DNA of 63,986 bases, filler included, from Dimargaris cristalligena (Eukaryota), in the NCBI GenBank assembly GCA_003614675.1. It is 3 parts of 3 records of this genome, joined end to end, with 100 filler letters (N's around TTAATTAATTAA, not from the genome) between each part and the next. Parts side by side here need not be neighbours in the genome. Positions count along the whole stretch, not along the records: positions 1 to 21,516 come from ML002660.1; 2 more parts are not named here. One strand, given 5' to 3'. Positions 1 to 43,219 of this stretch are shown piece by piece. The position numbers and the translations under genes were made by a program. The notes below the pieces were generated by a model. The model searched no databases. It worked only from the letters and a program-made list of their open reading frames with translations, and was not told where the DNA came from. The stretch's first letter is position 1. Each line of letters starts with the position of its first letter.

Positions 1-223
1 GAGAACTGTCCAGACTGCCAAGAGTATCATGGTCAAACTCATTTATGGATCCAAGCACCAATGGGACCTTGTTCTGCCTTTTGTCCAGTACTGTATCAAC
101 ACCAAGGTCACCAATAGGCACAAGATGACACCTTTTCTGGTCTTCTTTGGACGTCAGCCTAACCAGCTTCGAGAACACCAAGCAGCTACCAAAGCACCCA
201 AGAGACTCACCACTTCATACTAA
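1..223 (+). mobile_element. Ty3/Gypsy-type integrase C-terminal remnant
   Basis: ORF 29..223 reads 'QWDLVLPFVQYCINTKVTNRHKMTPFLVFFGRQP', matching the W..L....A.N.....T..TPF...FGR.P motif after the integrase catalytic E. It is CpG-poor and abuts the LTR-like repeat. Confidence 0.7.
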
Positions 224-649
224 TCACTCAAGTGCTGATCTAAAGACTCTTCCAGCTACCATCAGAGTCTTCCAGATACTAACAGCTATCCAGTTAGCCT
301 ATTTATCCATAACTTAGTCTTAGTAGTATCCTTCCCCCAAGACCTCCCTCTGGAGTGGTCCCTGCATATATATAACTAGGCCCCATTGGGACTAGTTAGA
401 TTCCTTGGCTTATTTTTACACCTAATTTACCCCTAATAAACTCTATATATACTCACCCCCCCCCTTATACTGACTAGTAAGTGTGATAACTGCATCTCCC
501 TTGTATATACCTGCCATAGTCTTTACTAATTAGCACCATGCCCTGTACCTAATACTGGTAGCCTACTTAGCTGAACCTAAGCCCTACCTACCATTAGAAG
601 CCTATCCTCAGGACTTTTGATAGACTAAGAGTAGTTAACTCAGGTGACA
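205..649 (+). mobile_element. LTR-like dispersed repeat, copy 1
   Basis: Reverse complement aligns by eye with 57978..58415 and 63473..63830 (e.g. actcttagtc..gagtcc..aggata..ctaatggtagg). Ends in ...GGTGACA and follows an integrase remnant. Confidence 0.75.
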
Positions 650-777
650 TGTCTGATATTCTTTAGTTTGATAACTTTTTAGCTGAGACCTCTAAGTTAT
701 TGCAGAAACCCACTCCCAACCCAAGGTTTATCTGGGAATTAGTTAAACAGTGGTACAAACTAGCAACAGTGGAATCA

Positions 778-1949
778 ATGGTGGCCTTAACTGAGATACC
801 TCTAGAATTATTCAAATATACAAGCAATGACACACAAGGGGAGGGTGTTGGTGCAGCTTTCTAAGATCAGGCTGACCCCAATAGATAATTTAAACTATTC
901 CTGGATACCTGCCAGGGTAATTTGCACCTAGCCAGTGCTAATTGGAAATACATGGATGTAAACCAATGGAAGGATGTCCAACTTAAAGATGACCTGGGAA
1001 AGTTTGACAGTGCCATGTGCAAGATACCACTGGCTTTCGGCTTGGTCATGGTCCACTTTACTAATGCCCATACCTTGAAGTCACTGAGCATTCTCCATAA
1101 GCTCACCGGATTGAATCCCAAATACATTGATATGGGTGAAGTTCAGCTTGGCTGTATAAGGTTTTAACTGATATGTGCATGGGAAAATCGGTGGGATGTT
1201 TATTTTCAACCAGTAGTATTTGCCTCATCAAATGGATTTTTCGTTATACAGCCTTGTTAAACTACTCCCATATTATGATGGACTGGTTGCATCAAATGGG
1301 GGCCAAACTAGGCCTCGACATGACACTGGTGAGCAAAGAATACATGGCAACTAGACAAACCTTTAGAACCATAGTGAATTTATCTATTCAATTGGCCGTC
1401 GTACAGCTCTACCAGACCAAACAATATTCTGAGATTAGTCAATACTGGCATCTTTATGATGACTCTGCTTGGCCACCGCCGGTGGCGGGAGGCTTTCACA
1501 GTATTTTTCAGGATAGCCGAGTACAATCCGCTTGCCTATTCCTTACTCTTGCCACACTAGATAAAAACAATGAGTTAGTGCGCAAGCTCCTCCGGGTGTT
1601 AAAGACCAGTCCGTGGGTCCTAGGTCTAGGCTGCTATAAAAAGTTATTGGTCAAATTGGGTCTCCGCAAACAGGAAAGCTATATAGCCAACCTGGTCGAA
1701 GATGATAGTATCTGGTCAATTCCGACCAACGAAATTGGTTGCAGTATGTTTAGTATAGGGTCGCAATGGTTTCGCCTATCATCCCAAGGCAAACTGGGAA
1801 TTGGCCTTAATGTGGCGAAGTTTGTGCCGAAACTCAACAAGGGCGCATTTATGACAACTAACCCCGCTGACCATTATCCTATCCATATTCTGGCTTGCAA
1901 TGAAGGCAAAACCTCCCTATGGGGACGGGTCATTTCATCTTTATTCTAA
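778..1949 (+). pseudogene. Decayed lineage-specific protein gene interrupted by a MITE
   Basis: ORFs 922..1167 and 1173..1949 join in frame (..KYID-IMMDWLHQ..) if the 1134..1269 element plus one ATAT is removed. Two TAA stops lie upstream in the same frame. No family recognised. Confidence 0.55.
1134..1269. mobile_element. MITE copy A (136 bp, ATAT flanks)
   Basis: ATAT|GGGTGAAGTTCAGCTTGGCTGTATAA ... TTATACAGCCTTGTTAAACTACTCCC|ATAT, with imperfect ~26-bp TIRs. Homologous to copies at 21434, 46001 and 56208. Confidence 0.85.
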
Positions 1950-2668
1950 CTACCTAGCATATTCTTTAACGCCTTTACTTTTTCGGGTGTTCGATAGGTA
2001 TCGCTGGTTCCTCCAGCCCACTTAGTGTTTCCACGTTATTTTTCTTACTATATATGTGATTGCGATTTTTCCATGACTATTATTCATTTTATCGGTGTTA
2101 TTTAACCAGGGCTTTGAGTTTGGACAATAAAATAAAATTCCGGGTTTTTACAGCCATTACCAAATAATATATTGGCGGAAAATGCCTGTATGAATGGTTT
2201 TCAGAGTTCGTTCGACGATCGGAGATCATAAAACAATAGGCAAATAGTAGAAGGACTAGTTCTAATAACGTATTTGGGGGGGGGGGTCGGACTGCCCTAG
2301 GGAATCGTGGCAACTGGCTACTTGGTCTCCCCAAGGTGGCCCGAAGGACCGACGTGTCTACTAGAATGGGGAGGTGTTTCCCCACCCTCATAAGCCTCTT
2401 TGGTCACTTCAAGACTATAACAAATTTTATCACGCCAACCGTGTGTGATATTATTACCTCTCTCGGTCCTTGCGCAATTTATGGGCATCCTTGTTTCTCT
2501 TATACCTCTTATTCCCTGTCCTTTACTCTGTGGTTCTCCTCCCATTCATTGACCACCACCACCTCCCAACTCTTCGTCAGCTCCTCCGCCAATAACTCCC
2601 ATTCTTGCACCCTCTCTATCTACCCTCTCCCTACACCTCCACTTTTGCCAATTGCACCGTTATTCACT

Positions 2669-4221
2669 ATGGCGACCACTTCATCCGCCTTCGATACCCA
2701 GCATCAGGACATGATCCACGATGCCCAGATGGACTACTATGGCAAGCGTTTGGCTACCTGCTCATCCGACCGCACCATCCGCCTGTTCGACGTCCAGGGA
2801 GATAAGCAAACCCTGATTGAATCCCTCCACGGCCACGATGGCCCCGTCTGGCAAGTGGCCTGGGCCCATCCCCGGTTCGGACCCATTCTCGCTTCCTGCT
2901 CCTACGATGGCCGGGTCATCATATGGAAGGAAATTGAAGGCGAATGGGTGCGTGTTAAGGAACACCAGTCTCATACTTCATCAGGTAAGTCGTGGTTTCT
3001 CCCCAGGGCACCATGGATGGGGATGTACCTCCCCCCTCCCCATTCAATGGGGGCCCATCCATTGGCATGGTGTAGCTTGTTCCCCCTAATTCACCGGCAT
3101 CTACAGAAACTGGATACAGTTATGCTTATAGCAGTGTTCCTATCGCCCACCTATTACCCTGTCCCTATTATCGACCAATCCACGCTTATTTTATTAACCG
3201 GTGATGCCACTTGTCTTGTTTTCCTACCCTGACATGTTGCCTTCAACTCAGTTAACTCCATTGCTTGGGCTCCCCAGGAACTCGGCCCCATCCTGGCCTG
3301 TGCTTCCTCTGATGGCTACGTCTCTATTCTGACTTTCAATGGTAAGCTACCCCGCACTCTATTTAGTTTTCAGTTCCCCTTCTGGATATCCCTATTGGTA
3401 CTTTACTTCCTCCCCGAATCTCGCTGTGTGAATAACACCCACCTATCCCCGTATTTAATGCAATATCCGCCTTATTCCAATACTATTCCTCATACTCCAG
3501 CCGAAGAAGGCGCTTGGGCGAATAAGAAATTCATGGCCCACAAAGTAGGTGTCAATGCTATTTCGTGGTGTTCTCCCGTTCAGCCCGGTACGCTACTGCA
3601 GGGCAACAGCACGACTGCCCCCAACACAGTGAAGCGTCTGGCCACCGGTGGGTGCGATAACCTAATCCGGATCTGGGCGGCCCGCAACGACGAATGGGTC
3701 GAAGAATAAGTTCTGGAACACCATACCGAATGGGTGCGGGATGTGGCCTTTGCTCCCAATTTCGGACTCAGCAAAACCTTATTGGCCAGCTGTTCACAGG
3801 TAAGTTTAAGGCACTCGCCATATCTGGTTATGTATATATATATATATCAGTTGGAAAACCCCTAGGTTAGGTTATAATTAACCCAAGGCCTACTTGAAGC
3901 CAGTGGCACATTCGAATAAGGAGCCTTTCTAATGGCTCCAGTTAGGTCATATTACTAAACATTGTTGTGGAATATTGACATTTTGGACTGCTCATCATTT
4001 AGGACAAAACCGTCGTTATTGCCACTCACGACGCCGAGACTAATACCTGGACTAAAACCCCGCTGAAGGAAGGCAAATTCCCCGATGTGGTCTGGCGAGT
4101 GAGCTGGTCCCTCACTGGTAATATTCTGGCGGTCTCTTGCGGCGACAATAAGATCACCGTTTGGAAACAAAACCTAAAGGGTGCTTGGGAGTGCGTCGAG
4201 GAACTGCAAGAAAAGGTGTAA
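2669..4221 (+). CDS. SEC13: COPII/nucleoporin WD40 protein Sec13 (4 exons, in-frame TAA at 3707..3709)
   Basis: Exons 2669-2984, 3252-3341, 3501-3799 and 4003-4221 with GT..AG introns. Motifs: [82 protein letters not shown]. Confidence 0.95.
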
Positions 4222-5162
4222 CGCTAAGAAAAATCCCTTGATGTATCCCCTCCACATGTTCGTCCGACCTGTTTTTTTTTTCGCCTCCCTCTCATTGTCT
4301 GTGCAAATATATGTGCTTTATAAAGGGAGCTTTTCTACATGTCCTCCGATATTGTGCTTGTTGATAAACTGTCCCATTTTTCTTTCTCAGAAGGTGTTAT
4401 TGGCAAATGACATGTATACATCTGTGCAACTACAAGGGGCGGAAATGAGTTAACTACCCCATGGCTTGGCTGGCTCATTCTTAGGTCATTTCCGAAACAC
4501 TTGGTGTAATTGAGTTTACCGCTAGCAATGCCTAGTTGGGTATTCTTCAATGTGGCTACTTATTTAACATTTCAGTCTTCAGGACTAAACCAATAGTAGG
4601 CCTACCCGTCTGGCTGTGCCACTGGCGTAGATAATCTGCGACTCCGACCACCATTTGCTCCTGTCCACAGTTTGAGTTTTATCTTTATTTTTATTTAAGG
4701 GAATATTGTAATTATATCTCGGGAAATCTTGCCCGGAATTTCCGGTGACAATTTCCCAGTTTAACTTGAGACCAATGAATAGTTTCTGATTGCTTCACAT
4801 CGACCACTTCGTCGAGAAGTTGACTACTATTTCAAGGGTATCCCTGATTCTAATGAGAGATTGCCCGATTATATAATCCCTATTGCACTATTCAATCGTT
4901 TAGTTTATATTTTATATTATTAACAAAGGCAGCCCCATTTATAAGTCTCCTAGCTGTTCGGAACTACAAATGATTCATAGTCTAAAATGCTAACAATGTC
5001 CCTAGTTCCCAAAGACCTGGGGTCACTGGCGTATGGTACCCCCCCCCCTAGACATATACTCAGAAACATGTTAAACAAAATCATGTGATTGTAGCTGTTT
5101 TTTATATATAGTATTTTGTATAAATACGTATACAAATTTACCTCTATTCTCTTCTCTTTGTT

Positions 5163-6496
5163 ATGGTTTTTCTTGTAATACCCAATTTTTATCTACTTTC
5201 TCCCATCTCAAGTATGGTTCCTATTGATTACGATAGATATGTTAAGTACCTTACCAATAGTGACGCTTCTAGTCGCTATGACTCAGACTTAACTGCTGAT
5301 CAAAAAAAGAGTATTCGGACTTTGGCCTCCCAATATAGTACTTTCAATGGCGCACTGTATCGTATTGCCAATAGCAAACACAGAAGCTCCCGCCGAGTTA
5401 TCCGCGAAAGTGAAGTGGTCGAGGCTGTTGGTCGCTTTCACTCCAATCGACCGGGCAGCATTGACCATGGGCCCCACGATGCTACCATCAAAGCCATCGA
5501 GAAGGAACTCTATGATCCGAACCTTCGTCGCCATGTGGTGGAGTTCATTAATGCCTGCCCCGCCTGCCAACTGACCTCCACTGCCCCACCCCGCCAATCG
5601 GAGCCACCGTGTCCTGTCCGTGGCAATGGTCGACCTTGGAATTGTACTGCCGTGGATATCCTGCAACTCCCTGAAACGGAACGCGGTAATAGGTATGCCC
5701 TAACTATTTTGGACCTGTATTCCAAATGGGTCGAGTCATTTCCCCTTAATAATAAGTCCGCAGAATCGGTAGGTGATGCTTTGGAGAGAGCCTTTTGCGA
5801 TTGGGGAACGCCCAGAATCCTACTGTCGGGCCAGGGCCGCGAGTTTAACAACGACCTAATCGATGACCTCCTAGAAAAGCTCGAGATTCACCACCAGCGG
5901 TTTGCCGCCAACACACCGCGCATTAACGGGCAAGCGGGGCGGGCGAACCAAACCCTAAAGCAACAGCTGCAACGAATATGCGGAGTCGATTTGGCCGATT
6001 GGGATAAAGAACTACAGACCGCGCGAATGGCCATGAATCGGGTCACCCACTCCACCACGGGGCTTAGCCCATTCCTATTAATGCACGGCTGGGAACCGCG
6101 GTGTTCATAGGCCCTTCTTCTTCTACGGCCCCTAGTGAGATGGCCTCAACCGAAGAAGTGGTGGCTGCCTATGAACAACAGTTCATCGAAATGGCTAAAA
6201 CCCGCGAAATAGCATTGGCCAATATGGCTCGGGCCCGAGAACGCCAAATGTGGGCGCATGCCCTGCGTAATGACATGCTAATTACCGGGTCGGCCATAAC
6301 GGTGGGCTGTATAGTTAAGCTGTATAACCCGCGTAAAAGAGACATACAGGGCTACGCGGGTCGTTCCTATTTAGGTCCCTATACCCTTATCGAAATTGGC
6401 GAGGATGAGCAATGTACTTTAAAAAATCAGCAGGGTGTAATTCTTAAAAGCAAGCATCCTATTTCTCGTCTGGAAATAATTATTTCTGCCCCCTAA
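5163..6496 (+). mobile_element. Stand-alone Gypsy-like integrase (GIN/Ginger-like), catalytic D and E replaced by Gly, one frameshift near 6100
   Basis: HHCC zinc finger (FH...DHG...CPAC), rve core (AVDIL, ILDLYSKW, WGTPRILLSGQGREF, NGQAGRAN, SPFLLMHGWEPR) and a GPY module (YLGPY) in ORF 6101..6496. No gag, RT or RNase H fits between SEC13 and this ORF. Confidence 0.85.
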
Positions 6497-7009
6497 CACC
6501 AATACCGAAAGGTCTATTCACGGTTTTGAACCGGGTACTCGCCCTCTTTAGTTCTTTTACAAGATTATATATATATATATATAATATACATAATTTAAGG
6601 TCCATTTCTATATATCTGCTTAATATGCTAGGTGAAAATACGTTTTGGTTCCGGGTGTTAAAGTGGGGTATCATATGCCTAGCACACTGGCGATATGCCC
6701 ACACTCCTGGGCCCGGAATTGCAATAGCACGATCTAGCGATGTATTCGATAACTAGACAGGATCGGCAAGTGTTGGCTCAATGCATTCTGGTTATTAACT
6801 ATAAATATAGGGTAATGAGCTAATGTCTCTTAGGAGGTGTGTCGTAAGGTAAACCCAATGATTATGCGCACCATAGTCAGACGGGTGAGGTTCAGTTGTA
6901 GTTGTATACTATAATTGATCGCCCACAGCCAGTCGGTTGTTGAACGTGGCCAGTGTGCTCAATTGATCGATATCCGCTCGTCTTGGGAAACTATCGAGAC
7001 CGGCAACAA

Positions 7010-9651
7010 TTAGGCCCACTAGAAGGACATTTCAGTCGAAATGAAGAGAGGCAGCGGAAAATGGAACATACGCAATACAAACAAATAAATATATTAGTAT
7101 GAAAATGCATTGGGCAGATAAGACAAGGCAGGGCTCTCGGAAAAACCTGCAGCACTATCCCAGACCCTGGGGTTTCCCCAATACCTGTGTCGTATGGCTA
7201 GTAACCAATATCGAATGATAAACAAGCAGTAAGAGGGGATAAAGTAGCCTGTATTCCTCGGCAAACTCCCAGTCGGAAAATGTATGTATAAATAGAATAC
7301 GTCACTTATGGGTGCAATTATTGACTTACCAAATCACGGAGATAACGATGCTCCTGCATCCACTGGACCAGTAGTTTTTTGGCGTCCATTAGGGTGATTC
7401 CAAAATGTGGGTCGTCCTCGTTCTTTTCCGCCTGTACCAGAATTTCCGCCAGGGTTTCGTTGACGTCCCGGGCCATATTGAGAGCATCACCGCAAACGTA
7501 TATAATGGCGTTGTCATGGACTATGAGTCGGTAAATATCGGCCGCGTGGCGACGGAGGTGGTGTTGCACATACCTAGGATGCTCCGCCCCTTCGGTTGCG
7601 GGGGTCGGTGGCGACGACGGCGAGTAGCGACTGTATGCCACCACCAAACGGGACAACACACCGTCGCGTTCGTAGCCTTCCAGCTGGTCCCGAAATAGGT
7701 AGTCTTTGCGAGGGTCGCGGCAGCCATAAAATAGCCAAGTCTCACGCGAAGCTGAGGCAGGGGTCGATCGAGCCAACTGCTCCAAGAAGCCCATAAAGGG
7801 GGCGACACCGGTTCCGGGACCAATCATGACAATGGGCCGGGTGGGATCCCGGGTCAGCTGGAACCCGTGGTGGTTCGGCTTCAGGAACAGGTGAAGGGGT
7901 GCGGTGGGGGTGGGGAATGGGCGACCTAGGGAGAGCCGCTCCAACCAGGGGGTGCAAAGACCCTCCCGCTTAACGACCAGCGGGGCTGGTTGATCGTACT
8001 GAACCACATTAAAGACGAAGCGGAGGTCAAAAGTCGAATGGGAGGCTTCATCACCTTCTGAAGTGGACAACGACGGTGGGGGTGGGGGTGGAGCATTGGC
8101 CACGGAGTAATACCGGGGTTGGTGTGGGGGAAGCGTATCTAACAGGCGTTCCAAAGGAGGTTGGCAGCTGGGGAAAGTCGTCAAGATATCCAATAGAGTG
8201 GGGCGTAAGTCGCGGAATGTTGAGAAAAGGGTGGCCCCCTGTTTGCTACACAAGTATAAGAGCTGTTTCTTCTCCTCGGCATCCGCGGTATAATCCGCCA
8301 ACATACGAATGAAGGCCTTTTTGGGCACCGCCACCAGATCCAATAGATCGGTAAATATGGTTCGGGGTGACACTGGGCCCAGGTGGGAAAGGTAAGTGGG
8401 GATCGGTGTTGTTTCGGCCACGGGTGCGATCGTCAAGGGCGTATCAGCGGTATCGGCGAGTCCCAATCGGACCAGCAGGGCCCCAACCAATGGGGTCGGA
8501 TTAGGACAAATTACACCAAAGGCGTCACCGGGCCAAAAGTCGGCGGATTTTCCGGCCGCCGGAAGAGGTTGGAAAGTCAATGCTAGGGTAGTTTTGAGGG
8601 CATCGGGGGCAGTAAGATACTGTGCCTGGGTAATGCGGGCTTGAAAAACCTGCCCCGGAGCATGCCGTGAATAGAGAGTTCCCCGATCGACGGCCTGGTC
8701 CGAAGTTGGAGTAGCTGATTCGGATTCGGATTTGACTAACTGGCACAACATCGCTGGGACCCGCGGGGTCCCCGTCAAGCTAGACAGCTGGGCCAGGGGA
8801 GCAAAGTCGAGTGGAAGGTGGTGGCCCACCCAGACTGTATCCGAGTCTGATTCTGATTCCGTTTCCGGTGGCCCGTTTACCGCGGGGGAGGTGTTGCCCT
8901 CGGTGGCCGGGGCACTGATGTCTAACTCGGCGAGTTTTTCGGCCATAGGGTCGACTGGACGAACATCGGAGGAGGAGGAGGAGGTGGTGGTGGTAATAGT
9001 AGTGGTAGTAGGAGTGGGGACGGGAACCACAGTCTCGGCCGTAGAGCCTTTCGAAGTTCCCGGCAATACTTTTCCCCCGGATTTAGTCTGGCACACCTCG
9101 GCCAAGGGGGCCCACAGACCCGCGCACCATGGCTCCACCGTCTCTTCCAAGCCGGTAGCATCGTCAGCCAGGGCCCGGGGATAAAACGGCTTCGCCTGTA
9201 ACTCGCGCAGTTTCTCGTCCAGCCGTTTGCCGCCGTTGCAAAAGTTATCGTAATTCGTGTCCCCCAACCCGAGGAGGGTATAGCGCATAAAGGACCAGTT
9301 TTCGGACTGTTTTTTCGCGATGCGACGCAGGTAGCGCCAGAATTTGGTGGCGTTGTCCGGGGGATCGCCATCCCCGGTGGTGGACACGACGAACACATAC
9401 ACCGACTGGGGGTGGAAGGCGACTTTTTCGTAGTCATCCATGACCAAGGCCTGGGCTTGGTAGCCCCGTTGCTGGGCCTGGTCGAGAAGGTTGAGGGCGA
9501 TGGATTCGGCATTGCCCGTCTGGGAACCGTACATGAAAACGACGTCGGTGGCCCGAGGGCCGGTGGTGGAAGTGGCCATGGTGTGAAAAGAACGAATGCG
9601 ACGAAGAAGGCGTTGAAAAGGGGGAAGAGCAGGGAGGAGACAAGCGGGCAT
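7010..9651 (-). CDS. MTRR: Methionine synthase reductase (diflavin reductase); exons 9651(or 9579)-7330 and 7018-7010
   Basis: Flavodoxin motifs YGSQTGNA, STTGDGDPPDNA and LGLGDTNY. MTRR-like segment PKKAFIRMLADYT..LCSKQGA..FPSCQPPL..PRYYS, then IGPGTGVAPFMGF and IYVCGDA. Donor TTG|GTAAGT at 7329 and acceptor CTAG|TGG GCC TAA give the C-terminus RDLWA. Confidence 0.88.
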
Positions 9652-11117
9652 AGTGGGCTGGCTGGTTGGTAACGTGAGACGTGTATCAAAGCACCCAATA
9701 AAAAATTAGGCAGGGGGAGAGTATATTATAGAGGAAAAATCATTATCAGATTGCTGCTGCCGTGTATATCGTTCACGGGAGGTGGTGGTGGGGGATCCAG
9801 TCTAATTTATGTAACACTTTAAGTAAGGTGGTTTTTATTATACTGTTCTATCAATGGGATTGGCCAATTGGTAGAACGAACGCTAGTCACTTCTCATTGC
9901 GCTGGTAAAACGACTTGACGGCGCTTTCCAAAGGAGGCTGGTGATTTGCCTGCAGTACTATTTTATTTGGAAGGGAAACCTACACTTGCTGCGCATTTGG
10001 GGCTTCTTACAGTATGCCAATTACATTGCCCATTGGATATTTACAAGGATGCCCCTCCTCCCTTGCCGTGCCTCTAGGTGGGCGATTCTTATAGAACACC
10101 GTGGTGGCTGGGCCTTGATTATTAATGAGTTCGACCTGAACTGCCTACCAACTCGACAATGCCCCGGACATAATACAGGGTATTTTCATTCGCCCTTATA
10201 AGATAGGTAGGCACTGTGTCAATCCATATAAAATGAAGGCCGGGTATCTGATGTGCATGTGGGAATAATTATCGGAATAGAACGGAGGCTCGTCGATATT
10301 AGGTGTACCTCTGCGATGATTCCATTTGTCAAAGCTCAGCTAATTAATGTGAATATGAAATATCGTGCGATATAAAGCAGCCGGTCCTTTCTTACCAGCA
10401 AGGGATGTCCGGAGCCAATAGTCTTTTACCAATAAACTAATGACAGCTGTTCTGGAGGCTGACAGTCCAATGCCATTGTCCAAAGATAGCTGCTTCTATT
10501 CATTACATCAGCTGCGGTAGTTTTTATGACAGCGGTTCCCTGCCTCGAAATCCACCTACAGGGGCTTTCCAAAGGGCGTTGGCAATGTGACTTTTCGCGC
10601 ATTAATAACTAGCCACCTCTACTTCGTTCACGGTTTAAGGCCAGGGAGGCGCAAAGCAATTGTAGATAAATAAGGCCTAATCAAAAACTTGACAAATGGC
10701 TCCTTAGAGTGGGGCATCTGTTTATTAACACTTATAGGATAGATTGACTGGCTGGCTGCCTGGACCATGTGAGGCGGGAGGTCTCGTTGGGTATACGCCT
10801 AGAAAACTTTCCCAACCAATTGAAGCTGGCACTGAACGTATATGTCACGTGCACTAAACCAGGGTTAGGGTACAGGCTTTGTTCAGTAGGCTGTAAATAA
10901 CCAAAAGATAGTTTAGACTGGAGGCTGCGGGGCCAGCTCTAGGGAGGGCATCGGCAAAGGTGGTTTGAACTTTCGAAGCCTAGGTGCCCCGTATCGTATT
11001 CGGACTTCCATTTGCCACAGGGCCTTCCTTTTCTCGCCTACCCTTTTATTCACCCGGTCTACAACGGCCACCTATTTATTACTTATATATATATATATAT
11101 ATATCGCCTGTTCTCTA

Positions 11118-13426
11118 ATGCCACCCCGGAAAGTACTACCACCATGCGCCAATCCCTTGTTTCTGGAATGGATTGACACCTGGATTCAGGAGGCTCGTTC
11201 CCGCCAGTCCAAACTCCAGTTCGTGTACAGGAAGGCCTACGACGCTATGCTGGCCTGTCCCGAGTGTTTAAACTCCGCCCAAGAAGCCAAGCGTCTTAAC
11301 GGGATCGGGGATGCCCTGGTGACTCGACTTCAAACCCGCTTGGATAAACACTACCTCGAACTGGGTCAAACTCCGCCTTCGTTGGCGGCGTCCGTAGCCA
11401 CGACTAACAACACCACTGCCACTACTACTACTAGCCCTGGGGCCGAATCGGCACAAACCGGAACTGTGGATGCTCGACCCCCTCGACCACCCACTTCAAA
11501 CGCCGAACCTGCACCGCGTCGTCGTCGGACTGCCGCCGAGTATGTTCCGCGGTACCGATCGGGGGCATTTTCTATCCTAATTGCGCTCCATTTGCTCACC
11601 GTCGAGAACCGCTGTCGACACCCTAGGGCTCCGGTGGTCGTATCGGCGTCGACATCAACTGCGGCATCGTCATTATCACCATCACCGGCACTAAGTGACC
11701 CCATTGAGGATCTACCGGAAGTCTGGTTCGCCAAAAACGATATCATTCGCTTGGCCCAAAACTTTTGCGATGCCACCTTTGATCTATCGGCCCGTGGTAA
11801 CCAATACACGGCCTGGTCAACCATGAAAACCTTGGTGGACCGGGAATTGGTGTACCGGTTTGGCAATGCGGGCCAGTACATGTTATCGGCCCCGGGTGAA
11901 GTATTGGCCCTGAAAATGTTTTTGGTGACCCGAACTAGAGACACGGACCTGCACCGTATCTTGACCGCTCTGAATCTGGACGCCGACGGCCGACCCTTAG
12001 ACCTGGGCCCTACTGTCGGGGCCGAGATCCACCCCACCAGGACTACGGGTTCGGGTTCCCATTCCAGGTCGATGGGCTACGGGGGAATGACTGCTTCGAC
12101 ACCCGCCGCTGTCGTGAATCTCCAGGATAAGCCCGTACGCTTTAGCCCCCAGATACATGCCCCCGGATCCTACTCAGTGGTTCTACTCCTGGACACACGG
12201 GAAATCCGCAGCCGCACCGATCGGGACTTTTTTCGAGTGGAGCTTGAAAAGCGACAGGTACCCGTCGTGCTTCGTAGCTTGACGGTGGGTGATATCATGT
12301 GGGTCGCTCGTCCGAACCAATGTAGTGGCTCGGATGAAGAACTCTTTCTAGAGCATATTGTCGAACGTAAGCGCATGGATGACTTGATTGCAAGTATCAA
12401 AGACGGTCGCTATCAGGAACAAAAGGTTTGTACTACTTCTTAAACACTGGATTAGGTGTGGCAGAAATTGGACACTAAATAGAAAGTAGCTACAAACCCG
12501 TCAACTTCTGATTGATTTTCACACGTACTCACACACTCTCCCTCCCTCTTAATCTAAATCCCTTTTGCATGGTTCCATCCTTAGAACCGACTGCGCAGCT
12601 GTGGTGCCGAGCGGGTCACCTATTTAGTCGAAGGCAACCACTCGGAGGAGGATCGTTGGATAGGGCCGGCCACGATCCAAACCGCCATTTCCGAAACCCA
12701 AACCATCCACGGGTTCGCAGTCAAACGCACTCCCACCATCGAAGCCTCCCTGGACTATCTGGCCCTAATGACAAGTCAGCTCCAAAAATACCTCGAGCCC
12801 CAAGCCCTGCACCAAGTCCCCGACGTGCTGGTGGCCGAAGATGGATACCAATGGGTTCCACTGAAGGATGCTCTCCAGGCGGCTTACCCCGAACACACGT
12901 GGTGCCTTTCCTATGCCGCCCTGTCGAATATGAGTACCAAGTCGGGGCATTTAACTCTGGGTGAATTATTTATTAAAATGCTCATGTCCGCCCGGGGAAT
13001 GTCAGCCGAAAAGGCAACTCATTTGGCCAAACGATACCGCACCCCCGCCCAGTAAGTTTGATAAAATTAAAGAGAGTTCTGGATATTGTATCGCTCTCCT
13101 TATTATTACTGTATCTTACCATGGGGCTTCCAATTAGCAGCTTTAATGAATTTAGCCATAACGGATCAGCTTAACCTCAAAATCGCCAAACTGCCCATTG
13201 GATACTACTCATCACACAATATTTTACCTGTTATTTTGTGTATTATCGGCTGAATCTCGTACTTTTTAGGTTTCTGCATGCGTTGACGGACATGCAGTCC
13301 AGCCATCAGCGAGTTCTGGCTATCCAGGACTGTGGGTCCGCTGTGCTAGCTCGGCGCAAAATCGGGCTGGGCTTGGCAGATAAAATAGCTGAAACGTGGT
13401 TTTCCCCGGAATACTCCGACACTTAA
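11118..13426 (+). CDS. MUS81: Structure-specific endonuclease Mus81 (3 exons)
   Basis: Exons 11118-12425, 12585-13051 and 13270-13426. N-terminal CANPLFLEW/HhH, winged-helix YVPRYRSGA, nuclease motifs LLLDTRE, VGDIMW and IVERKRMDDLIASIKDGRYQEQK, C-terminal HhH RKIGLGLA. Confidence 0.93.
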
Positions 13427-14436
13427 CTTATATTTTTCCCTTTGCACACCTAGCCTTTTTCGGTCGACTTGATACCCCCATTTTGCTTACGAGTCGCTCG
13501 TTATCATTGCCATTAAATTATCACTCGCACTTCCATTTTCGGTAATTTATATATATTTAAGGTTTTCACCGTTTCTTGTATTTTATACCATATATTTTCT
13601 AAATAATACTTTACTCTAAAGTCCATTTGGCCTGTTAGCACTTGTCGCAACCTCTCGTTAGCTCCGATGGCAAAATATTACGCCAGTTATGCTGGCGAGG
13701 AAGGGTTTTTGGTGTTTCTTATTTTATTCCAGGGCTATTTATATATCCCCAGCGTAGGTTTCCGTCGGCCCTGACTAACTAGATAGCACTCCTTCAATGG
13801 ACCATATATTGGTATATCTCCAGTGGCTGTGGTTTGAAGTCAAGGTAAAATAATCTTGATTTACACCCCGATTATCTTTGGATGCATAATGTTACTCAAA
13901 TAACCCATTTTTGGTTGATGGATTAATGCCCTACCTATGTGAGAGTGGCTATTTATCACATTTTCAGGTATAGCAAAACCCAGTTGGTTTTTGGATTTCG
14001 CGTATCATTAGAGTCGGAGAAAAGGTCGGGAGATATTGGAGGGCGATTTGGGCACCACCATGAAACTATAGGGATACGATTTTATCAGCCTGAGAGCAAG
14101 GGTGAGGGAGACTGATTAACCCTTTGAGGTTCATTTAAAGCGCTCAGGGGGCGGGGAGTCCCCCAATCCCCACAGTATGGGAAATATCACTACCACTCGC
14201 TTTATTATTGTCTGACCTTACCCTTGTTTGTCTCTCCCCTTCGCTCATTCGCTAATATTCGACCTCTATTTGCATTTCCCGCGTACCACCAACTGTAGCC
14301 CAGGAGTATCCTAATTTATATCCGCTCTTCCTTCAAAGAATTGCGGTTCCCCCCGCATAGCTAGCTGCATCCCTAACCGCCTCCATCCGCCTCCTCGGTT
14401 CGTTAAATACCGTCGTTTCCACAACACTTTGGGACC

Positions 14437-17324
14437 ATGGTATGGTCACGGCCCACGACGACTTGGATCGCATGTGCATTCCTAGGTCTAACGATTGGTG
14501 CCCAGGCCAATGGGTCAGGCTCTCTTTTGGATGCCCAGGAATGGACCAACCACACGCTCATGTGGGGCACCTACCGACCCAACCTCTATTTCGGAGTCCG
14601 TCCCCGCTTACCGCATTCCCTGCTGACCAGCCTGGCCTGGTTCGGCGTAACCGATTTTGAACAGTGGCAAAGTAAGTTAGCCAGGAATACTAGTAGCCGG
14701 GCCTGTTATACCAGTCGCCGTTTTCTTTTTTGGAGTTACAAAGTAGAGTTGGCCCGTAAAAACTTTCGTTGAAGTTGTTGAAGGAGGAGCCGTTGCCATG
14801 GTTTATTTACACTGATCCGATGTATGTATACAATGCTTCATCCTAACTCGTATACCCCAATCCCACCCTGGTAATCCGCTTTTCCCGATAGATATTCGGC
14901 ATGCTTGTAGCATGGACGACAAAATCAAGGGGTATGGCTATCATGTACACGACGGCCGCTCGTTTGGTGAGCAAACCATTCGCGACACCTCCAATAATGT
15001 CCTCATCACCACTGATTTTATTAAACCGGCCGACGGCGAAGGTTGGAGTGCCCGTATCAGCGGTCGACCCATTGATAAGTCCCGGGATGCGGATATCTCC
15101 CTCGTTTACCTCATCGGTTTAGATGCCGAGGAAGGCGGTGAACTATACTTAGCCGATTCAGCGGCTGAATCCTCCTCCCAGGACCATTCACCACCACTGA
15201 TTGGAGAGGCCATTCAGTTCCACGGCCATACCCCTGATTTAGGTGAATTTACGCTGACGGTGGAGGGAGACCCAACTAACCAAGCGGCCACCTTGAGCGC
15301 GGGCCGGACCCTCCCCGGCGGAGTGGATCCGGACCGCGTGGTTGTCGTGGGCGTCCAAGTGCCCGACCATCAGTTATGGCAGGGTAAAGAAGTAATTGAT
15401 CAACTTCTGCTCCGGCAGGTACAAAGCCGCGTCGATCCCCAGGGTCGGACGGCGTATTTACCCCCGTATTTACTCCGCCTCCCGCAACTTCAGGCTCCCG
15501 ACGCTAATTCCTACCTCCTACAATATACCTTGCGGGCTCCGTTTACCCTTCGCGTTCGGTTTGCCCCTCGTGAATCGGAGACCCCGCCACCCTTGGCTCC
15601 TTTGGCTACCGAGCAAGAAACCCAAATCAAGGCACTCACCACCCAATTTACCCGGCGGTTCACCCGTACGTTTCATTTGGATACAAAACAGTTTACCGAG
15701 GCTCAGATCAAAATAGGCCAAGACGCCCTCAGCAACTTGTTAGGGGGGATCGGGTATTTCTACGGAAACCAAATGGTAACTGACGATCACCGTGGGCGGC
15801 CGTGGGATGTTCCCGAGCAGATGAATGACGGTGATAGTGACGACGACGATGATGATGATGATAGGGATGCCGATGACGAGAATGAGGACGATAATAATGC
15901 GAGTCATGAATTCCGGGCCCCCAAAACGAATGAGTACCGCCTGACCCCACCCAGTGCCCTGTTTTCATCCACCCCGTCACGCTCCTTCTTCCCCCGGGGT
16001 TTTCTGTGGGACGAGGGCTTCCTCCAGCTTCTCGTCGGTGCCTGGGATACCGACCTTAGTCTTGAAATCATCCAACACTGGACCAACGCCATTGACGCTG
16101 ACGGTTGGGTGGCCCGGGAACAGATTCTGGGTCCTGAGGCGCGCAGTAAAGTACCCCCGGAATTCCAGGTGCAGAATACGGCGTTCGCCAATCCCCCGAC
16201 CCTTTTGTTCCCCATCATGGCCTTCGTGAAACGACTGGCCATCTACCACAGCACCCCGCCCCCGTTTCCGCCCGTCCTCTCGGCCCGCCCTTTGCAGGGG
16301 TGGGGCGGGTCAGGAGTAGTACCCGCGGCCGTGGCGGAAGTCTGGGCCTCGGCCATGCCCCGGGAATATAACCGTTTCGTCACGGATGCGGCGCTGGGCC
16401 CCGAATTGCTCGAGCATATCTTTCCGGCTCTGCAACGCCAATTCGAGTGGTTCCAAAGGACCCAGGTCGGTGAACTTAAACCCTGGGGCTCGACGCCTCC
16501 CTTCCCCATCCGCTTCGTATCGGGCCGCCTACCGCTGGCGGGGCCGGACCCTCAACCATACTCTGACGTCGGGCTTGGACGACTACCCCCGTGCCACCCC
16601 CCACCGCGGGGAACTCCATGTTGATCTCATGAGTTGGATGGGCTACATGAGTCGGTCGTTAATGACCATCAGTGACATGTTGGGTCGGTCGGAAGACCAA
16701 CTGGAATACCAAACGGTCCATGAACATATTCTGGCCAACCTGGACACTTTGCACTGGAATCCCAACCGCCAGATGTATTGTGATGTCACTGTGGTAGAAG
16801 ATGATAACGATGACGCCGGCGTCGACCCGCGGGATATAATGACCACGGACAACGACGAATCCCCCTCGGTATTGGTATGCCACCGGGGTTACCTCAGTCT
16901 ATTCCCCCTGGCCCTAGGTCTCCTTCCCCCTTCATCGCCGAAACTGGGGGCCCTTTTAAACATGATCCACGACCCCCGTCAACTCTGGTCGCCCTACGGG
17001 GTGCGTTCCCTGGCGAAATCCGACCCCAATTATGACACGGGCGAAAACTACTGGCGCGGTGCGGTGTGGCTGAACCTCAACTACCTGGTTTTGGCGGGCC
17101 TGCACACTTATTATCGGGACCCCCCGGGACCGTATCGGGCCCAAGCGAACGTGATTTACGAGGCGCTCCGCACGAATGTGGTGAATAATGTACTGAAACA
17201 GTACCGTAAAACGGGGTTTTTCTGGGAACAGTATTCGGCTAAAACAGGCGCGGGTTTGCGGGCCCACCCGTTTACGGGCTGGACGTCCCTGGTGCTATTG
17301 ATCATGGCCGAAAAATACGATTAA
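14437..17324 (+). CDS. CWH41: ER processing alpha-glucosidase I (GH63), with apparent +1 frameshift at 16485-16488
   Basis: Exon 1 14437-14671 (hydrophobic N-terminus, WGTYRPNLYFG) and exon 2 from 14892. Motifs PSRSFFPRGFLWDEGF, GWVAREQILG and ANPPTL, then in the next frame YRWRGRT..HTLTSGLDDYPR, NYWRGAVWLN, FFWEQY and HPFTGWT. Confidence 0.93.
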
Positions 17325-20300
17325 AAAGGGGGATATGGCTGTTGGTCGGTGGCGTAGTGGGGTATTCAGTGTTCTCTAGGACTAGGGGCGATGGGTTTAT
17401 CTTACCCATTTATCTGACAATTTACATGACGGACTAGCCATTTTTATTATTATACGGAGTCGTCCGTCTTGCATTTAAAATCTATGTTACTCCGATCTTC
17501 GAAATTCCGATGGTTTCGGGTATTATTGGGTACCGTAATAAATCCATACAAAAACGAGAGTCTTTAGATAGTGAATATTCGTATGGGCAGGAGGGGGAAA
17601 TATTAATGAGCGAATAGTTTTATCGGCGGTGGCCTATCCATTGTCAAGGGAGGAATCATGTCTACTACATTACAATTACTTTATTTTACCCCAACACAGC
17701 ACCGCCATGCAGGTTCATTCCTTCACCATACGGATTTTCATAATATACGAATATATGGTTATACGGTACTGAAAAGATATTTCAGTTGGGCATAATTGTG
17801 GCATGAACCGAGGCGTTACAGCACAAAAATAACTGCCTGTGCGCGTTCCTTACAGAAGAAATTGTTGAATGGCGGCTGATTGAGGAAAGGTGAGGTTTGG
17901 CTGTCGGAAGGTTGACGTCGATATTCCAACTGTACAATACCCACTATTCTATCATTAGTATTTACAGTCCTACTCGGTGAGTTTATAACGGGCCCTTTTT
18001 GTTGTATTACACTTCAGCTGTCAAAGCTGAAGGCATCTAAATCCCTGTTGCACCGCATTATGAGTTATGTAAGTCTAGGGAGTGGCTCCATCGCCTGACT
18101 CTGGGGCCACCGGCCCTCTTGACCATTATTGAGGCCAATGTACAGCTCCCATTTTTCGATTTCTAGGGAAATCTAAACAAATGACATCCCCCCTCGTTCT
18201 TTGTGTAGCACTGGATTGTTCGATCGGCTGACAATAATATCTTGTAGGCCAATTTTAACAATATCCCCAACCCCACTGAAAACCATACCGCCGGCATACT
18301 TATTTACAGCGGCATATCTGCCCGAGTCTAGTAGACATGTAATAACCAAAAATCAGTGATAACCAAAATTCAGCTAGGATCAAGCCACTCGAATCACCCT
18401 GGTAAAAGGCACATGGGCTTGAGCCTCGTGAATACAGAGGGTATGGATATCCCCTTTTTATTTAAGGATTAGGGCAGCTTTAGTGTCTAATTAACAGGAC
18501 TAAACAGGTATGGAATGTCTACGAGAGTCAAAAATGGAAGAATTGGTAGCGGTGATTGAGAACTGCATAGCCGGTTGGCCGTATTAAAAGAAAAGGGGGG
18601 GGGAAAGATTACCTATTTTTATGAATGGGCTATAAGAAAACCCAACCGGTGGTAAATATGACATCTATCAATACATAATGGTAAAATGAAACTCGGCAAC
18701 AGTTTTAGTGAATAGTTGATGCATCGCCGGTGCCTACAGTCAGGATATCGAATGTGGTCGTCTCCTTAGGCAACCCTGGTCACCATAGAAAACCCGACAT
18801 GTAAACTGGCTCTGATACCGGCCTATTAAATAGCCGACCATGCAGGAGAAGTATAGCGCCATCGAGTGTGTTTCTGAGTGGAATGTAAAATAAAATGAAA
18901 TTGGCCAAATGGTTTTTAACCGTGTACAGAATCAAGCCGAGTCAGTCGATTCTATGTCATGTAATTGCGCCTACGATACTCTGATAAAATTCGATAAGAC
19001 CATATGTCTACAGGTATAGTGGGCTCCGGACTATAGTCAGCCATACTAATATTATCCCCAAGGAACGGATAGTGCAAAGTTAGCAAAATCGGCTCTCCAA
19101 AACGACGACATTAGAGCCCAGAGAAAGAGGGTATTCCAAAACAAATAATCAAAAATAAAAAAAGTTGTAGCACCAACTATTCCCAAGTGGTCACCCACCT
19201 CAGTACTAAATTGGCTGATACCAACTTAACTTCGCAGATCTAACGGGATACGGTGCAAACTGGTACATATGGCCACAACTGAAGAAAGTCTAAATTTTTT
19301 GATATTTATTGTCAAAAGATCACGTGACACCAGAAACCGCGGTACTTATCCCACCCCTTTGGTCGAGTTCTTAGTGATACCCTCCTCCATTTGGGTGCAA
19401 TTACTGGGTTGCCCCCCGTTCCGACCATTGATCAACGCTAACACTACCAGCCGATATGCTTACTATATATTTTGGACATTGTTGGCGATTATTATTAACT
19501 ACCAAACAGTCGAGTATAAGAATCGGGTATTTCTATCGTAGAACTGACTGGATTAAGAGGTAGACTGGATGTCAAAAGGTATAATTTTTCTATAATTAGA
19601 TTGAATTTCGCCCACATCCCAGGACAATTGCACCATGGGGTCCGTTATGGGCTTTGCTAACGGGATATGGCCCCACAAGCTACATTAGAATAGTAGCCAA
19701 ATGGTATGCTCTATCCCTTATCCTAGTATAGCCCAGTATAAAGGCCGTTGTACATGTGACTGCTAAACGTTCAATACGATATTGAATGTGAAATGAGAGG
19801 TTCAGCATATAGTAGTATATATCACATATTTCTGGCGCAGAGCACCATTGGGGGAAAATGCCGCCGGCCCCCGAAAGTCGGGCAATTGAATTGCATTTTT
19901 CATCTCCGAAACGGCAATAACGGAACAGCTGCCTTTGGGGGGGGGGGCAATTCACAGATTCACAAATTTGTCGGAGAATGTGATGCCTTCGCCTAGCATG
20001 TACATGGTACGGGGGGCCGAAAAGAAAGTTCTGTTATGGTGCCGGTTTGGGATTGACCTATCTAGAAGTTCTTTTATAGAACCCGGGGCCTTCATATCAA
20101 ATTAACATTCCCCTGACATGAATAATTGGCTATATCAATTTTCCTAGACCTTCGTACCCGCTGCTCCCTACCATTTCATTGAGTTTTACGGGCTTTTTTC
20201 TTACCCGAATTAGATTCACTACTGTTGATGCCATTTGTATAATAAACTCGGAGGCTCTTAAATGCGACTCGAGGCATATTTTAGTCAAGACAGGTCGTGT

Positions 20301-21516: not shown

Positions 21517-21616
21517 NNNNNNNNNNNNNNNNNNNNNNNNNNNNNNNNNNNNNNNNNNNNTTAATTAATTAANNNNNNNNNNNNNNNNNNNNNNNNNNNN
21601 NNNNNNNNNNNNNNNN
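21517..21616. other. Artificial assembly spacer (N44-TTAATTAATTAA-N44)
   Basis: 100-nt N run with a six-frame stop linker, identical to 43120..43219. Confidence 0.97.
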
Positions 21617-24600
21617 GGGGAAGGTTATGTCCGTCCTCTAAAGGTCACGTGACCTAAATATGATGGCCCCCTTATATGGATTTTACCCTATATAGTCGGG
21701 TTGAACTTTACCCACATAGACCCATTGAGATTTCAAAAACAAGTTTAGAATCTAATCTTAAGATGGGGTCTAGGGACCATAGTGGTGGTGAGGTTAGCAG
21801 TCATTCAATATTAAATGATTCCTTTCATTCGAATGGGCTATAGGTGCACATAGGGGGTTTGGGGTAGCATGCCTAAATATTCCTGATGAAACTAGCCTAA
21901 ACCCTGCTCCCAATAATTGCACAGGTTGTAATACACTTACTTATTAACAGGATACCTTGGTCTACTAGGTAATACCAAGGGAAGTTCAATGCTTTCAGCC
22001 ATTGAAGAATACTGTAAATATATATTTTTGGTCTAGTGAGGCCGAGTTTCAGTTGATAAGGGGATATTAGAACTTGGGGTTAGTGCTAATGCCATTGGGC
22101 TTAAGTCTTTGTATATGATATTTTTGTGTCTGCACTGAAGAAAAGTCGGTATATGACTCAGTATGTTGGCATTTGGAGGTACCTTTAGTCTCTGCCCCAT
22201 AGTGGTTTACACTGACTTTGCCTTGCTAATCTTCCAATGGTATAGGTCACAGGGACCCTGATACACTATAGTGAGAGTATGAGCCACACCCCTACGCATG
22301 TCCTTTCAGACACTATTTAAATAACACTGCTGATTTCCGCCACTCACTCTGTATCCCTGTAATCCAGATGACCAGCCACTGTACTGGATAGTAGAGATAC
22401 AACCCAAACTCAAGTTATGTTTTACCAAGGACATAAAGATTCCACACCTGGTAAGCGATTTAAAGACCAGGCAGTATTCCTACTGATTATATTCGGCCTT
22501 CAAAACTGTTTTTCCTGTGATCCCACATTATATGTTCTCCCTCCACTATTGTACATTCTATAACCACCCTAAACCTTCGGACCTTTGGTATATAACTGGA
22601 TGAATCAACCCATTGCCCCACTACTTGAGTTCACCTGCCCAGAATTTCTTGGCTGTAATCGTCCAACTGTGTCTTTAATATTCCTGAAGAGAATCCTATT
22701 TTCAAATGCTGATGAGAGGAAGTCGTATATCATCTAACATAATCTCTCTACGGCATTTAACAATGGTCTCAGATAGACCCCTGGGTTATAAAGAAGATTT
22801 TGCCAATTCAAGTTGAACAACTTTACCCTTGCATAGGTTCAGGTTTTGGAGCTCCTTCGCAGATATCACCGGGAATTTAATTGTCGTTAATGACGTCAAT
22901 GGAAATGTTGCTTCTAGGAACAACAGCCGGGGAATGCCAATATGTACATGTCTTGATTTTCAAGGCACCCTGCAGCCACACCAGTCAGAATAATAAAGGA
23001 AACCAGTCATCTGCTAAGGCGTGGGTGGTTCCAGCCAAACGTTAACTTGACTGGCTTTAAATGAAGTGGTCTAATACCGTGGCTGCATGTGAATTGGTAA
23101 GGGACAAGGCCCATACGTAAGACAGCCCTTTATTTTAATATACCTAAATGGGTTCAATATCGACTTGCTGAATCTATCAGGGTGCCAGAAGCATGGCAAG
23201 GTAGGCGAACTAGGCATAGGCAAAACCCACAGAAGTAAAATTACCCGCCAATAAAATAATACTAAACATGGTAGTACACTAAGGTTACCATTTGTAAAGG
23301 AGGGTTGTGGATATAAAACGATAGAGATGATAGTGCAAGCACGAGCCCGCCCTATGGTATGGCTAAGTAGTTTGAAGGTCAGCAAGTTTGGGTCGTTTCA
23401 ATGGCCCTTAAACTAGGCTATTCCCTATTCATCCGTTCACTTGGAAGTTTTTGCAGTGTTTAGGGAGGGTGTCTGTGTCATACAGTGACAAGAGTGGTTA
23501 GGGCTAAGTTGGCACTGATAAAAATAGCTCAGGGTGTTTAAATGGGTTATAGCTTTTTGGGTGGTACGGTACGTTGTATTGTGGTCATACTCACTGGAAA
23601 GGGACAGGATCATCCCTCCTTCCCTCCCTCCCTTGTTTTCCGCACTATTGCCCAAATACACAACCGAAAATGAAAACAGACCAGAGAACTGTGTCCATCA
23701 TTCTGGCTCGACCAGGGGCCCGGGTGACCAAAGCATTGCGTTATAAATAGGTTTTCCAGCTTAAAATTTACCCATCGGAACAATCGGTGGCAATTGGCAG
23801 TTTAAAATTTATATATATATGTATATGTATAGTTATATATAGCTATATATACCGGTTATCTGGATACACATGTATGTGTCTCGCTCGTTAGTGACCAGCG
23901 CCTAGCCTTTTATAGCTACCAACCAGACGGGCTTTGTTTGCAGTCTGACGCTTCGTGAGCTATTCAGGGAGGCAGCAACAGCAGGTGTCATTTTATGCCT
24001 ACAGCCACGCACGTAGCCACCGACCACTTTCCCTAATGTCGTCGTTGCGCCATTTATTGTAATGTCCGTTATTCGAGTAGAGTTATTTATAGTAAACCCC
24101 TTTTAGATATCAGTTTATTCTATAGAGGGTAGGGTTTAAAAAGGAGACCTTGTCCAGCGACCGGGAGGGAAACGAGCCTGAGTCTTCTGCACCTTGTACA
24201 TTTTAACCAGATGTTTACTGTTATCAATTGAAACTACCTAAGCAACCTTGGCCAACGTCACCTCAGTGAAAAAGCTATACTTGTCTGGTGGCAGATTCAC
24301 CCCCACTTGTTAAGCCCACTCCCTCCTCCTCTTCTTCCTCCCCCCTTTCAACTCTTTCTTCTGTCACCTCGTCCACTTGAATCCCAAACCTTGCGGACTT
24401 TGATAATAGCTACCTTTGATTCCCCTTCGAACGGACCCCGTTACTTCGTTTGCACCTTTAGTTAAAGCCCTGCCTCTCAACCAGGGCCGCCAACCAACTA
24501 ATCGAGCCCACTTTTGAGTCTTTTTTAGCCCCTCCAAACTATTCGACCCTCAAGGTGCTGTAGTGAACCTTGTCCTCCCGATTGCTCTTTCGACTCCGTT

Positions 24601-43119: not shown

Positions 43120-43219
43120 NNNNNNNNNNNNNNNNNNNNNNNNNNNNNNNNNNNNNNNNNNNNTTAATTAATTAANNNNNNNNNNNNNNNNNNNNNNNNN
43201 NNNNNNNNNNNNNNNNNNN
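43120..43219. other. Artificial assembly spacer (N44-TTAATTAATTAA-N44)
   Basis: Same 100-nt linker as 21517..21616. Confidence 0.97.

Follow-up and report, generated by a model that had tools for sequence, protein, structure and literature searches.

In the available text of Bao, Kapitonov & Jurka 2010 (PMC2836005), the hallmark of Ginger1 transposons is an integrase fused to an OTU or Ulp1 domain, together with YPYY and GPY/F motifs, terminal inverted repeats (TIRs) of 40-270 bp, TGTNR ends and CCGG/CCGT duplications; one Ginger1 family is described there without OTU/Ulp1. The same text reports Ginger1 from four animals only and Ginger2 from fungi, and defines the GIN genes as having orthologues throughout the vertebrates, introns that are conserved and frames that are open. 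In the corresponding part of Muszewska et al. (PMC5751038), 'Ginger' is ubiquitous in fungi, defined there by the rve domain alone. As judged by titles and abstracts, we found no literature report of Ginger1 in fungi. Here we describe an integrase locus of the zoopagomycete fungus Dimargaris cristalligena, located between SEC13 and a methionine synthase reductase (MTRR)-like gene in a stretch of 63,986 nucleotides from GenBank assembly GCA_003614675.1 (hereafter the window). With moderate confidence, we read this locus as a dead, immobile and frameshifted relic of a Ginger1-like transposase, probably a young pseudogene.

The whole integrase occupies positions 5214-6496 of the plus strand and comprises an N-terminal extension, an HHCC zinc finger, an RNase-H-like core and a GPY/F C-terminal part, spread over two reading frames. 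The first frame opens with an ATG at 5163 and remains open to 6107 (315 codons, plus strand), with a TAG stop at 6108-6110, and the second is open for 142 codons (6068-6496, plus strand). Translation of the first frame (P0001) is the basis for the residue numbers D165, G223 and G259; the second frame is P0002. The features of the locus are:

5163..5213, plus strand: upstream in-frame extension MVFLVIPNFYLLSPISS, from the first ATG, with no counterpart among relatives
5214..6107, plus strand: integrase coding sequence, first frame, with N-terminal extension, HHCC zinc finger and RNase-H-like core (Pfam, PDB alignments, AlphaFold)
5655..5657, plus strand: first catalytic Asp, D165 (GAT), kept; aligned with Ty3 and prototype foamy virus (PFV) integrases
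5829..5831, plus strand: Gly (G223, GGC) at the second catalytic Asp, SGQG against SDRD in Ty3 and SDQG in PFV
5937..5939, plus strand: Gly (G259, GGG) at the catalytic Glu, GQAGR against GQSER in Ty3 and GKVER in PFV
6099..6104, plus strand: frame break, one base missing relative to the family frame (CGG TG.. where relatives read R-V/L)
6104..6496, plus strand: integrase C-terminal part (linker and SH3-like GPY/F domain), shifted frame, 130 codons open, stop at 6494-6496

The second ATG (5214, M18) is taken as the homologous start, because relatives begin M-x-P-I-x-Y at that position. Residues 1-17 of the predicted structure have a predicted local distance difference test (pLDDT) score below 50, and the extension encoded by 5163-5213 probably lies outside the ancestral protein.

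Two of the three catalytic residues are lost. The Pfam rve model matches residues 164-248 of the first frame (2.4e-12, 47.4 bits), and among solved structures it comes closest to the Ty3 Gag-Pol integrase (7q5b, 3.2e-14) and then to the PFV integrase (3l2q, 2.7e-9). PDB alignments agree with what an earlier reading of this DNA (the sequence-only reading) had reported for the active site, namely that the first Asp is kept while the second Asp and the Glu are each replaced by Gly. Conservation in a 145-row alignment reaches 99% and 100% at these last two positions, and when 64 sequences are aligned the window protein is confirmed to lack two near-invariant residues, D223 and E259. With Gly at two of three metal-binding positions, chemistry of the DDE (Asp, Asp, Glu) type is impossible. 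The D-35-E spacing and the GPY module, both noticed earlier, are indeed there: exactly 35 residues lie between G223 and G259, and the motif 'LGPYTLIEI' is found in the shifted frame, with its G and P in columns conserved at 83-87%. No Pfam family matches the C-terminal part (P0002), which aligns with the C-termini of the relatives P0005, P0014, P0025 and P0079. The N-terminal extension aligns with both integrase-only and OTU-bearing relatives (Y..V.YL...), with a conserved Pro replaced.

The further claim that the DNA-binding scaffold had been retained holds in part. Zinc-finger residues H93, H102, C132 and C135 occupy conserved columns, and the core and the GPY/F motif are in their places. 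However, Integrase_H2C2 scores 25.3 bits in the first frame, slightly below the 25.5-bit cut-off, whereas the same domain scores 52-76 bits in relatives; because the zinc finger is this weak, describing the scaffold as intact is only partly true. AlphaFold predicts an integrase fold (pLDDT 87.7, predicted template modelling score 0.82), and a fold search confirms it; over 155-159 columns the modelled core fits that of PFV integrase to within 1.7-2.1 A. Since confidence of this kind comes largely from the homologue alignment, neither result can tell whether the gene is alive or has recently died.

The frame break separates the core from the C-terminal part. Relatives P0005 and P0014 read straight through this region as 'HGWEP(R/Q)(V/L)...' (P0005 has 'HGWEPQV...'), and the C-terminal part of the family continues in the 6068-6496 frame, where the window/P0005 alignment sets GCIVKLYNPRKRDIQGYAGRSYLGPYTLIEI against GDRVRLFHARARSRRGFTGPGYYGPFTISSI. 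Because relatives continue without interruption into the second frame, the break is the loss of one nucleotide at 6099-6104. A missing base in a short G run between two otherwise open frames could also be a sequencing or assembly error in a live gene or a live transposase, and the sequence-only reading, which had correctly seen that one base is missing near 6100, left room for an assembly error. Contigs from all four public runs (two studies) span the break without an indel, and both Gly codons are free of variant letters in the contigs of all four. Three of these runs belong to the same study as the probable source sample; the fourth, run X3, is separate and still carries the break among 9 differences from the window in the 4.5 kb compared. 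Indels are detectable in this comparison, because it reported them at 5038/5039 and 6409. Agreement of four out of four runs across the break therefore excludes an assembly error and places the frameshift in the DNA. A live transposase is further contradicted by the two catalytic Gly residues, which are there regardless of frame, and we regard a functional gene hidden by a sequencing error as very improbable.

The indel at 5038-5039 lies upstream of the open reading frame (ORF) in a poly-C run, which is one base shorter in X1 and X3 and two bases longer in X2; this difference is a homopolymer length polymorphism or error.

The deposited model of this locus, RKP36398.1 (P0003, 212 amino acids), is built from three exons (5214-~5692, ~6340-6415 and 6933-7010) separated by 'introns' of 648 and 516 nt, which remove both the catalytic core and the frame break. 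Introns readable in SEC13 and in a glucosidase gene of the window measure about 55-260 nt. RKP36398.1 is probably an ab initio artefact and no evidence of a working gene, and it hides the dead catalytic core of the integrase.

We searched the whole window by tblastn with 158 related proteins, including polyproteins bearing reverse transcriptase (RT), RNase H or protease and four OTU-bearing proteins. The search returned 251 high-scoring segment pairs, of which 47 fall outside the integrase locus, every one at positions 2-208, where a different integrase relic (see below) is located. No remnants of RT, RNase H, protease or OTU were found near the integrase at E<=1e-3, and none of the four OTU-bearing relatives detected an OTU domain downstream of 6496, the ORF stopping just past GPY/F. 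Positions 1-20000 contain no direct or inverted repeats of at least 40 nt and no long terminal repeat (LTR). These results concur with the earlier description of a solo integrase without RT, RNase H or LTR.

Element ends were not detected either. The region 4000-7400 yielded only TA-rich inverted matches of 15-21 nt as TIR candidates, and an exhaustive scan for TIRs flanked by a 2-9-bp target-site duplication (TSD) gave one weak TA-rich candidate (21/30 bases) with a 3-bp 'ATA' duplication. The TA-rich inverted matches at 5090-5123 and 6555-6590 were rejected as TIRs, being of low complexity with unpaired termini and no duplication.

Phylogenetic analysis bears on whether the locus is instead an internal fragment of a Gypsy/Ty3-type LTR retrotransposon that has lost its gag, protease, RT, RNase H and LTRs by deletion. 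The quick tree contained the window protein and 144 of the 155 hits that had a domain match; left out were near-duplicates within clusters and matches covering fewer than 180 query residues. In these 145 rows the window protein grouped with P0005 (99 by SH-like approximate likelihood ratio test, SH-aLRT) in a 24-row clade (98) of mostly integrase-only proteins. The careful tree of 59 rows combined 23 of those 24, including the window, with the integrase-only P0030 and 35 representatives of the rest; it recovered window plus P0005 (100/99) within a 23-row clade (100/99). This clade holds all four integrase+OTU proteins of the set (P0025, P0038, P0079 and P0119, by Pfam) along with 12 integrase-only proteins, and its named members are animal proteins, among them the Hydra 'gypsy retrotransposon integrase-like protein 1'. 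On the other side of the tree, where P0030 falls, 30 of 36 rows are RT-linked.

For a Gypsy fragment one can cite the Ty3 Gag-Pol polyprotein as the best PDB sequence match (3.2e-14), the YPYY-type N-terminal motif that some Gypsy groups share according to the available text of PMC2836005, and a long-branch subclade of five rows inside the 23-row clade, four of which carry RT or RT-type RNase H by Pfam (P0041 has none). Nevertheless, the rows nearest to the window protein by path are integrase-only or integrase+OTU, the ORF has its Met exactly where integrase-only relatives begin, and RT, RNase H, protease and LTR remnants were not found at E<=1e-3. A Gypsy origin is accordingly improbable in our view, and the Ginger/GIN-like identity proposed from the sequence is upheld. 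Judged by transposase phylogeny and motifs, with integrase+OTU proteins standing as proxy for Ginger1, the D. cristalligena integrase is Ginger1-like. As an element, it lacks every structural hallmark of Ginger1, having no TIR, TSD, OTU or DDE.

There is no close annotated relative. P0005, the closest protein, is a protein of 340 amino acids from a metagenome contig, 47% identical and with D, D and E intact; among 1.84 billion representatives the best protein other than the locus's own model is 47% identical. At near lengths, the only close protein kin among 1230 candidates was the locus's own model, and none of 264 candidates among longer proteins matched the C-terminal part. In metagenome DNA, the P0001 query gave 82 pattern stretches with none confirmed, and the P0005 query gave 29 loci with no close comparator, 28 of them at 25-40% identity and the exception (L028) at 67% over 21 residues only. 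The protein atlas returned generic integrase clusters from animals and protists only. Within the sequencing runs, at least four other contigs each in X1 and X3 match the GPY/F-coding segment 6365-6450 at about 85-93% identity, and in paralogous contigs (for example of 11.5 kb and 18 kb) similarity continues weakly beyond it. Divergent members of the integrase family therefore exist in the organism or its (co-)culture; the run data being contigs, depth is no guide to copy number.

The window itself contains a second integrase relic at 2-220 (plus strand), comprising the end of a catalytic core truncated where the window begins. Its best matches are integrase-only proteins from the Ginger1-like clade described above (P0014, 36%, E 1.7e-6), and it is only 25% identical to the integrase between SEC13 and MTRR.

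It was proposed in the sequence-only reading that the locus encodes an exapted host protein. Under this alternative, selection kept the integrase after catalysis was lost, either because the non-catalytic protein binds DNA or chromatin or because it represses related transposons in a dominant-negative manner, and the frameshift is a recent, perhaps strain-level loss, or is tolerated in a product consisting of zinc finger and dead core, or is spliced out. The available text of PMC2836005 provides a precedent in vertebrate GIN1 and GIN2, which are exapted Ginger1 transposases, and says of candidate Ciona Ginger1-derived genes what is seen here as well, the absence of TIRs and a position between housekeeping genes.

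A number of observations speak for such a history and against simple decay. The rank of the window protein among 144 relatives, 4th-11th from the bottom in family-consensus residues kept, counts for plain decay; most of the lost residues, however, are lineage traits, because the intact sister P0005 shares the losses. In a relative-rate comparison that has this one sister sequence as its reference, the 73 columns conserved at 60% or more in which P0005 is present include 7 losses confined to the window and 10 confined to P0005. Of the 20 columns conserved at 90% or more, two are lost in the window only, precisely those of the catalytic D and E, and none in P0005 only, which agrees with the selective loss of catalysis claimed earlier. 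At 80% or more, the window-only losses (D206, E242 and Y233 as numbered in this comparison) all fall in catalytic motifs, the third, Y233, within YHPQ..G..E of the Glu motif. Apart from the break, both frames are free of stop codons. When neutral substitution was simulated over a coding sequence of 1278 nt (426 codons), the joint probability of no stop and at least two of three catalytic residues changed peaked at about 0.004, whatever the divergence, so that neutral decay yields the observed pattern with P<=0.004. CpG observed/expected (o/e) is 0.97-0.98 in the integrase ORF, as in host genes, and codon usage, which like GC content at third positions does not discriminate between the readings, correlates with that of host genes at r 0.59 (two host genes mutually 0.62). 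If spliced, any of six GT..AG intervals could bring the two frames back together. Taken together, the conserved-residue, stop-codon, CpG and codon signals are consistent with selection having acted for a time on an integrase that had already lost catalysis.

The case against exaptation is led by the break itself, which in all four runs severs the GPY/F domain. The sequence-only reading had counted a frameshift confirmed by sequencing data as refuting a host protein, and sequencing data do confirm it. As to means of bypassing the break, inspection by eye, no scan having been made, showed no slippery heptamer before the stop, and two of the six candidate introns have features that count against them: one of 35 nt (6101-6135) is shorter than the 55-260-nt introns of this window, and one of 56 nt (6103-6158) would delete 'EMASTEEV', which is homologous to coding sequence of the sister P0005 ('EPASTVEV'). 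Both differences between run X3 and the window inside the ORF (2/2) are nonsynonymous, S59N and A88V, the zinc-finger score is far below that of relatives, and no orthologue was found in the protein collections searched. Moreover, the simulation and loss statistics are post hoc, this very pattern having been the reason for choosing the locus.

Hints of selection cannot outweigh a reproducible frameshift. From the exaptation proposal, the Ginger-like identity and the targeted loss of catalysis stand; domestication is not supported, the frameshift being real in four of four runs. We therefore treat exaptation, past or present, as a minority possibility and not as the best reading. More specifically, it is doubtful that in this early-diverging fungus a Ginger1-derived integrase without catalysis was kept by selection to repress related transposons through DNA binding or to serve as a chromatin factor, and that it has been caught while being lost or is expressed in a truncated or spliced version. 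If exaptation were true, the locus would be the first GIN-like exaptation outside animals, an independent non-animal domestication of an integrase with a clean signature of lost catalysis.

Our preferred reading, a dead Ginger1-like relic, supposes the following course. The ancestor would have been a cut-and-paste DNA transposon of Ginger1-like ('Gypsy-integrase-related') type, of which the transposase gene remains. Loss of the element ends (TIRs and TSD) would have made it immobile, and conversion of two catalytic residues to Gly together with the broken frame would have left a catalytically dead remnant. At present the locus would be a pseudogene or at most encode a 298-residue protein (M18 to the stop at 6108) of zinc finger and dead core, which would be without the C-terminal multimerisation domain. 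Inactivation appears to be fairly recent, because both frames are free of stops and the locus retains conserved residues no less well than P0005 does.

The high CpG content noted above had been contrasted earlier with that of other transposable element relics in the window, and the contrast is borne out: o/e falls to 0.18 in the relic at 2-220 and to 0.05 over the first kb, and values of 0.02-0.17 are seen for several further blocks. Blocks with o/e of 0.02-0.36 lie at 1-1000, 22001-23000, 44001-46000, 51001-52000, 56001-59000 and 63001-63986, compared with about 0.8-1.0 in genes. Other than at 2-208, the low-CpG blocks gave no match to the integrase-family and polyprotein tblastn queries; they presumably reflect CpG decay linked to repeats or to methylation.

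The integrase lies in the 3'-to-3' intergenic spacer of two host genes, both of which the sequence-only reading had named and PDB matches now identify:

2660..4000, plus strand: SEC13, upstream neighbour, several exons, 3' limit approximate (3.5e-58 to PDB SEC13)
7318..9705, minus strand: methionine synthase reductase (MTRR)-like diflavin reductase, downstream neighbour (PDB match 2qtl)

For the downstream neighbour, methionine synthase reductase (2qtl, 6.2e-80) is a better match than P450 reductase (8.4e-60). In the SEC13 region, position 3707 is T in the window and G in contigs of three of the four runs, including the possible source run, and the T is possibly a base error in the assembly. 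Elsewhere in the window there is a dispersed 5S rRNA gene at 19162-19280 (minus strand; Rfam RF00001, 102 bits), and no tRNA genes were found. Paired runs of 44 N occur at 21517-21616 and 43120-43219, and the integrase locus lies inside the first gap-free 21,516 bases.

Dead transposase genes are common, and a relic of this kind is therefore ordinary in itself. The position of this one among described systems is as follows. With the Ty3 and PFV integrases (7q5b and 3l2q) it shares a zinc finger and a catalytic core of the same order and fold; those, however, are parts of Pol polyproteins with intact DDE, whereas the D. cristalligena locus is a stand-alone ORF with D-G-G. Ginger2/Tdd transposases are likewise integrase-like, of the cut-and-paste type, and known from fungi, but Ginger2 is without YPYY and GPY/F in the available text of PMC2836005, and the D. 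cristalligena integrase has GPY/F and the N-terminal extension. Resemblance to vertebrate GIN1 and GIN2 consists in being integrase-derived, TIR-free and at a single locus between host genes; in contrast to them, its broken frame falls outside the open-frame definition of GIN genes. With the Ginger1 transposase it shares an integrase-only ORF in which an N-terminal extension, possibly of YPYY type, is combined with an H2C2 finger, an RNase-H-like core and GPY/F, and a grouping with integrase+OTU proteins and the Hydra protein mentioned above. Unlike Ginger1, the locus has no OTU/Ulp1, TIRs, CCGG/CCGT duplication or TGTNR termini, two of its three DDE residues are Gly, its frame is broken and its host is a zoopagomycete fungus. 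It thereby places a relic of a Ginger1-type integrase in Zoopagomycota, a modest extension of the known range and not a new kind of element.

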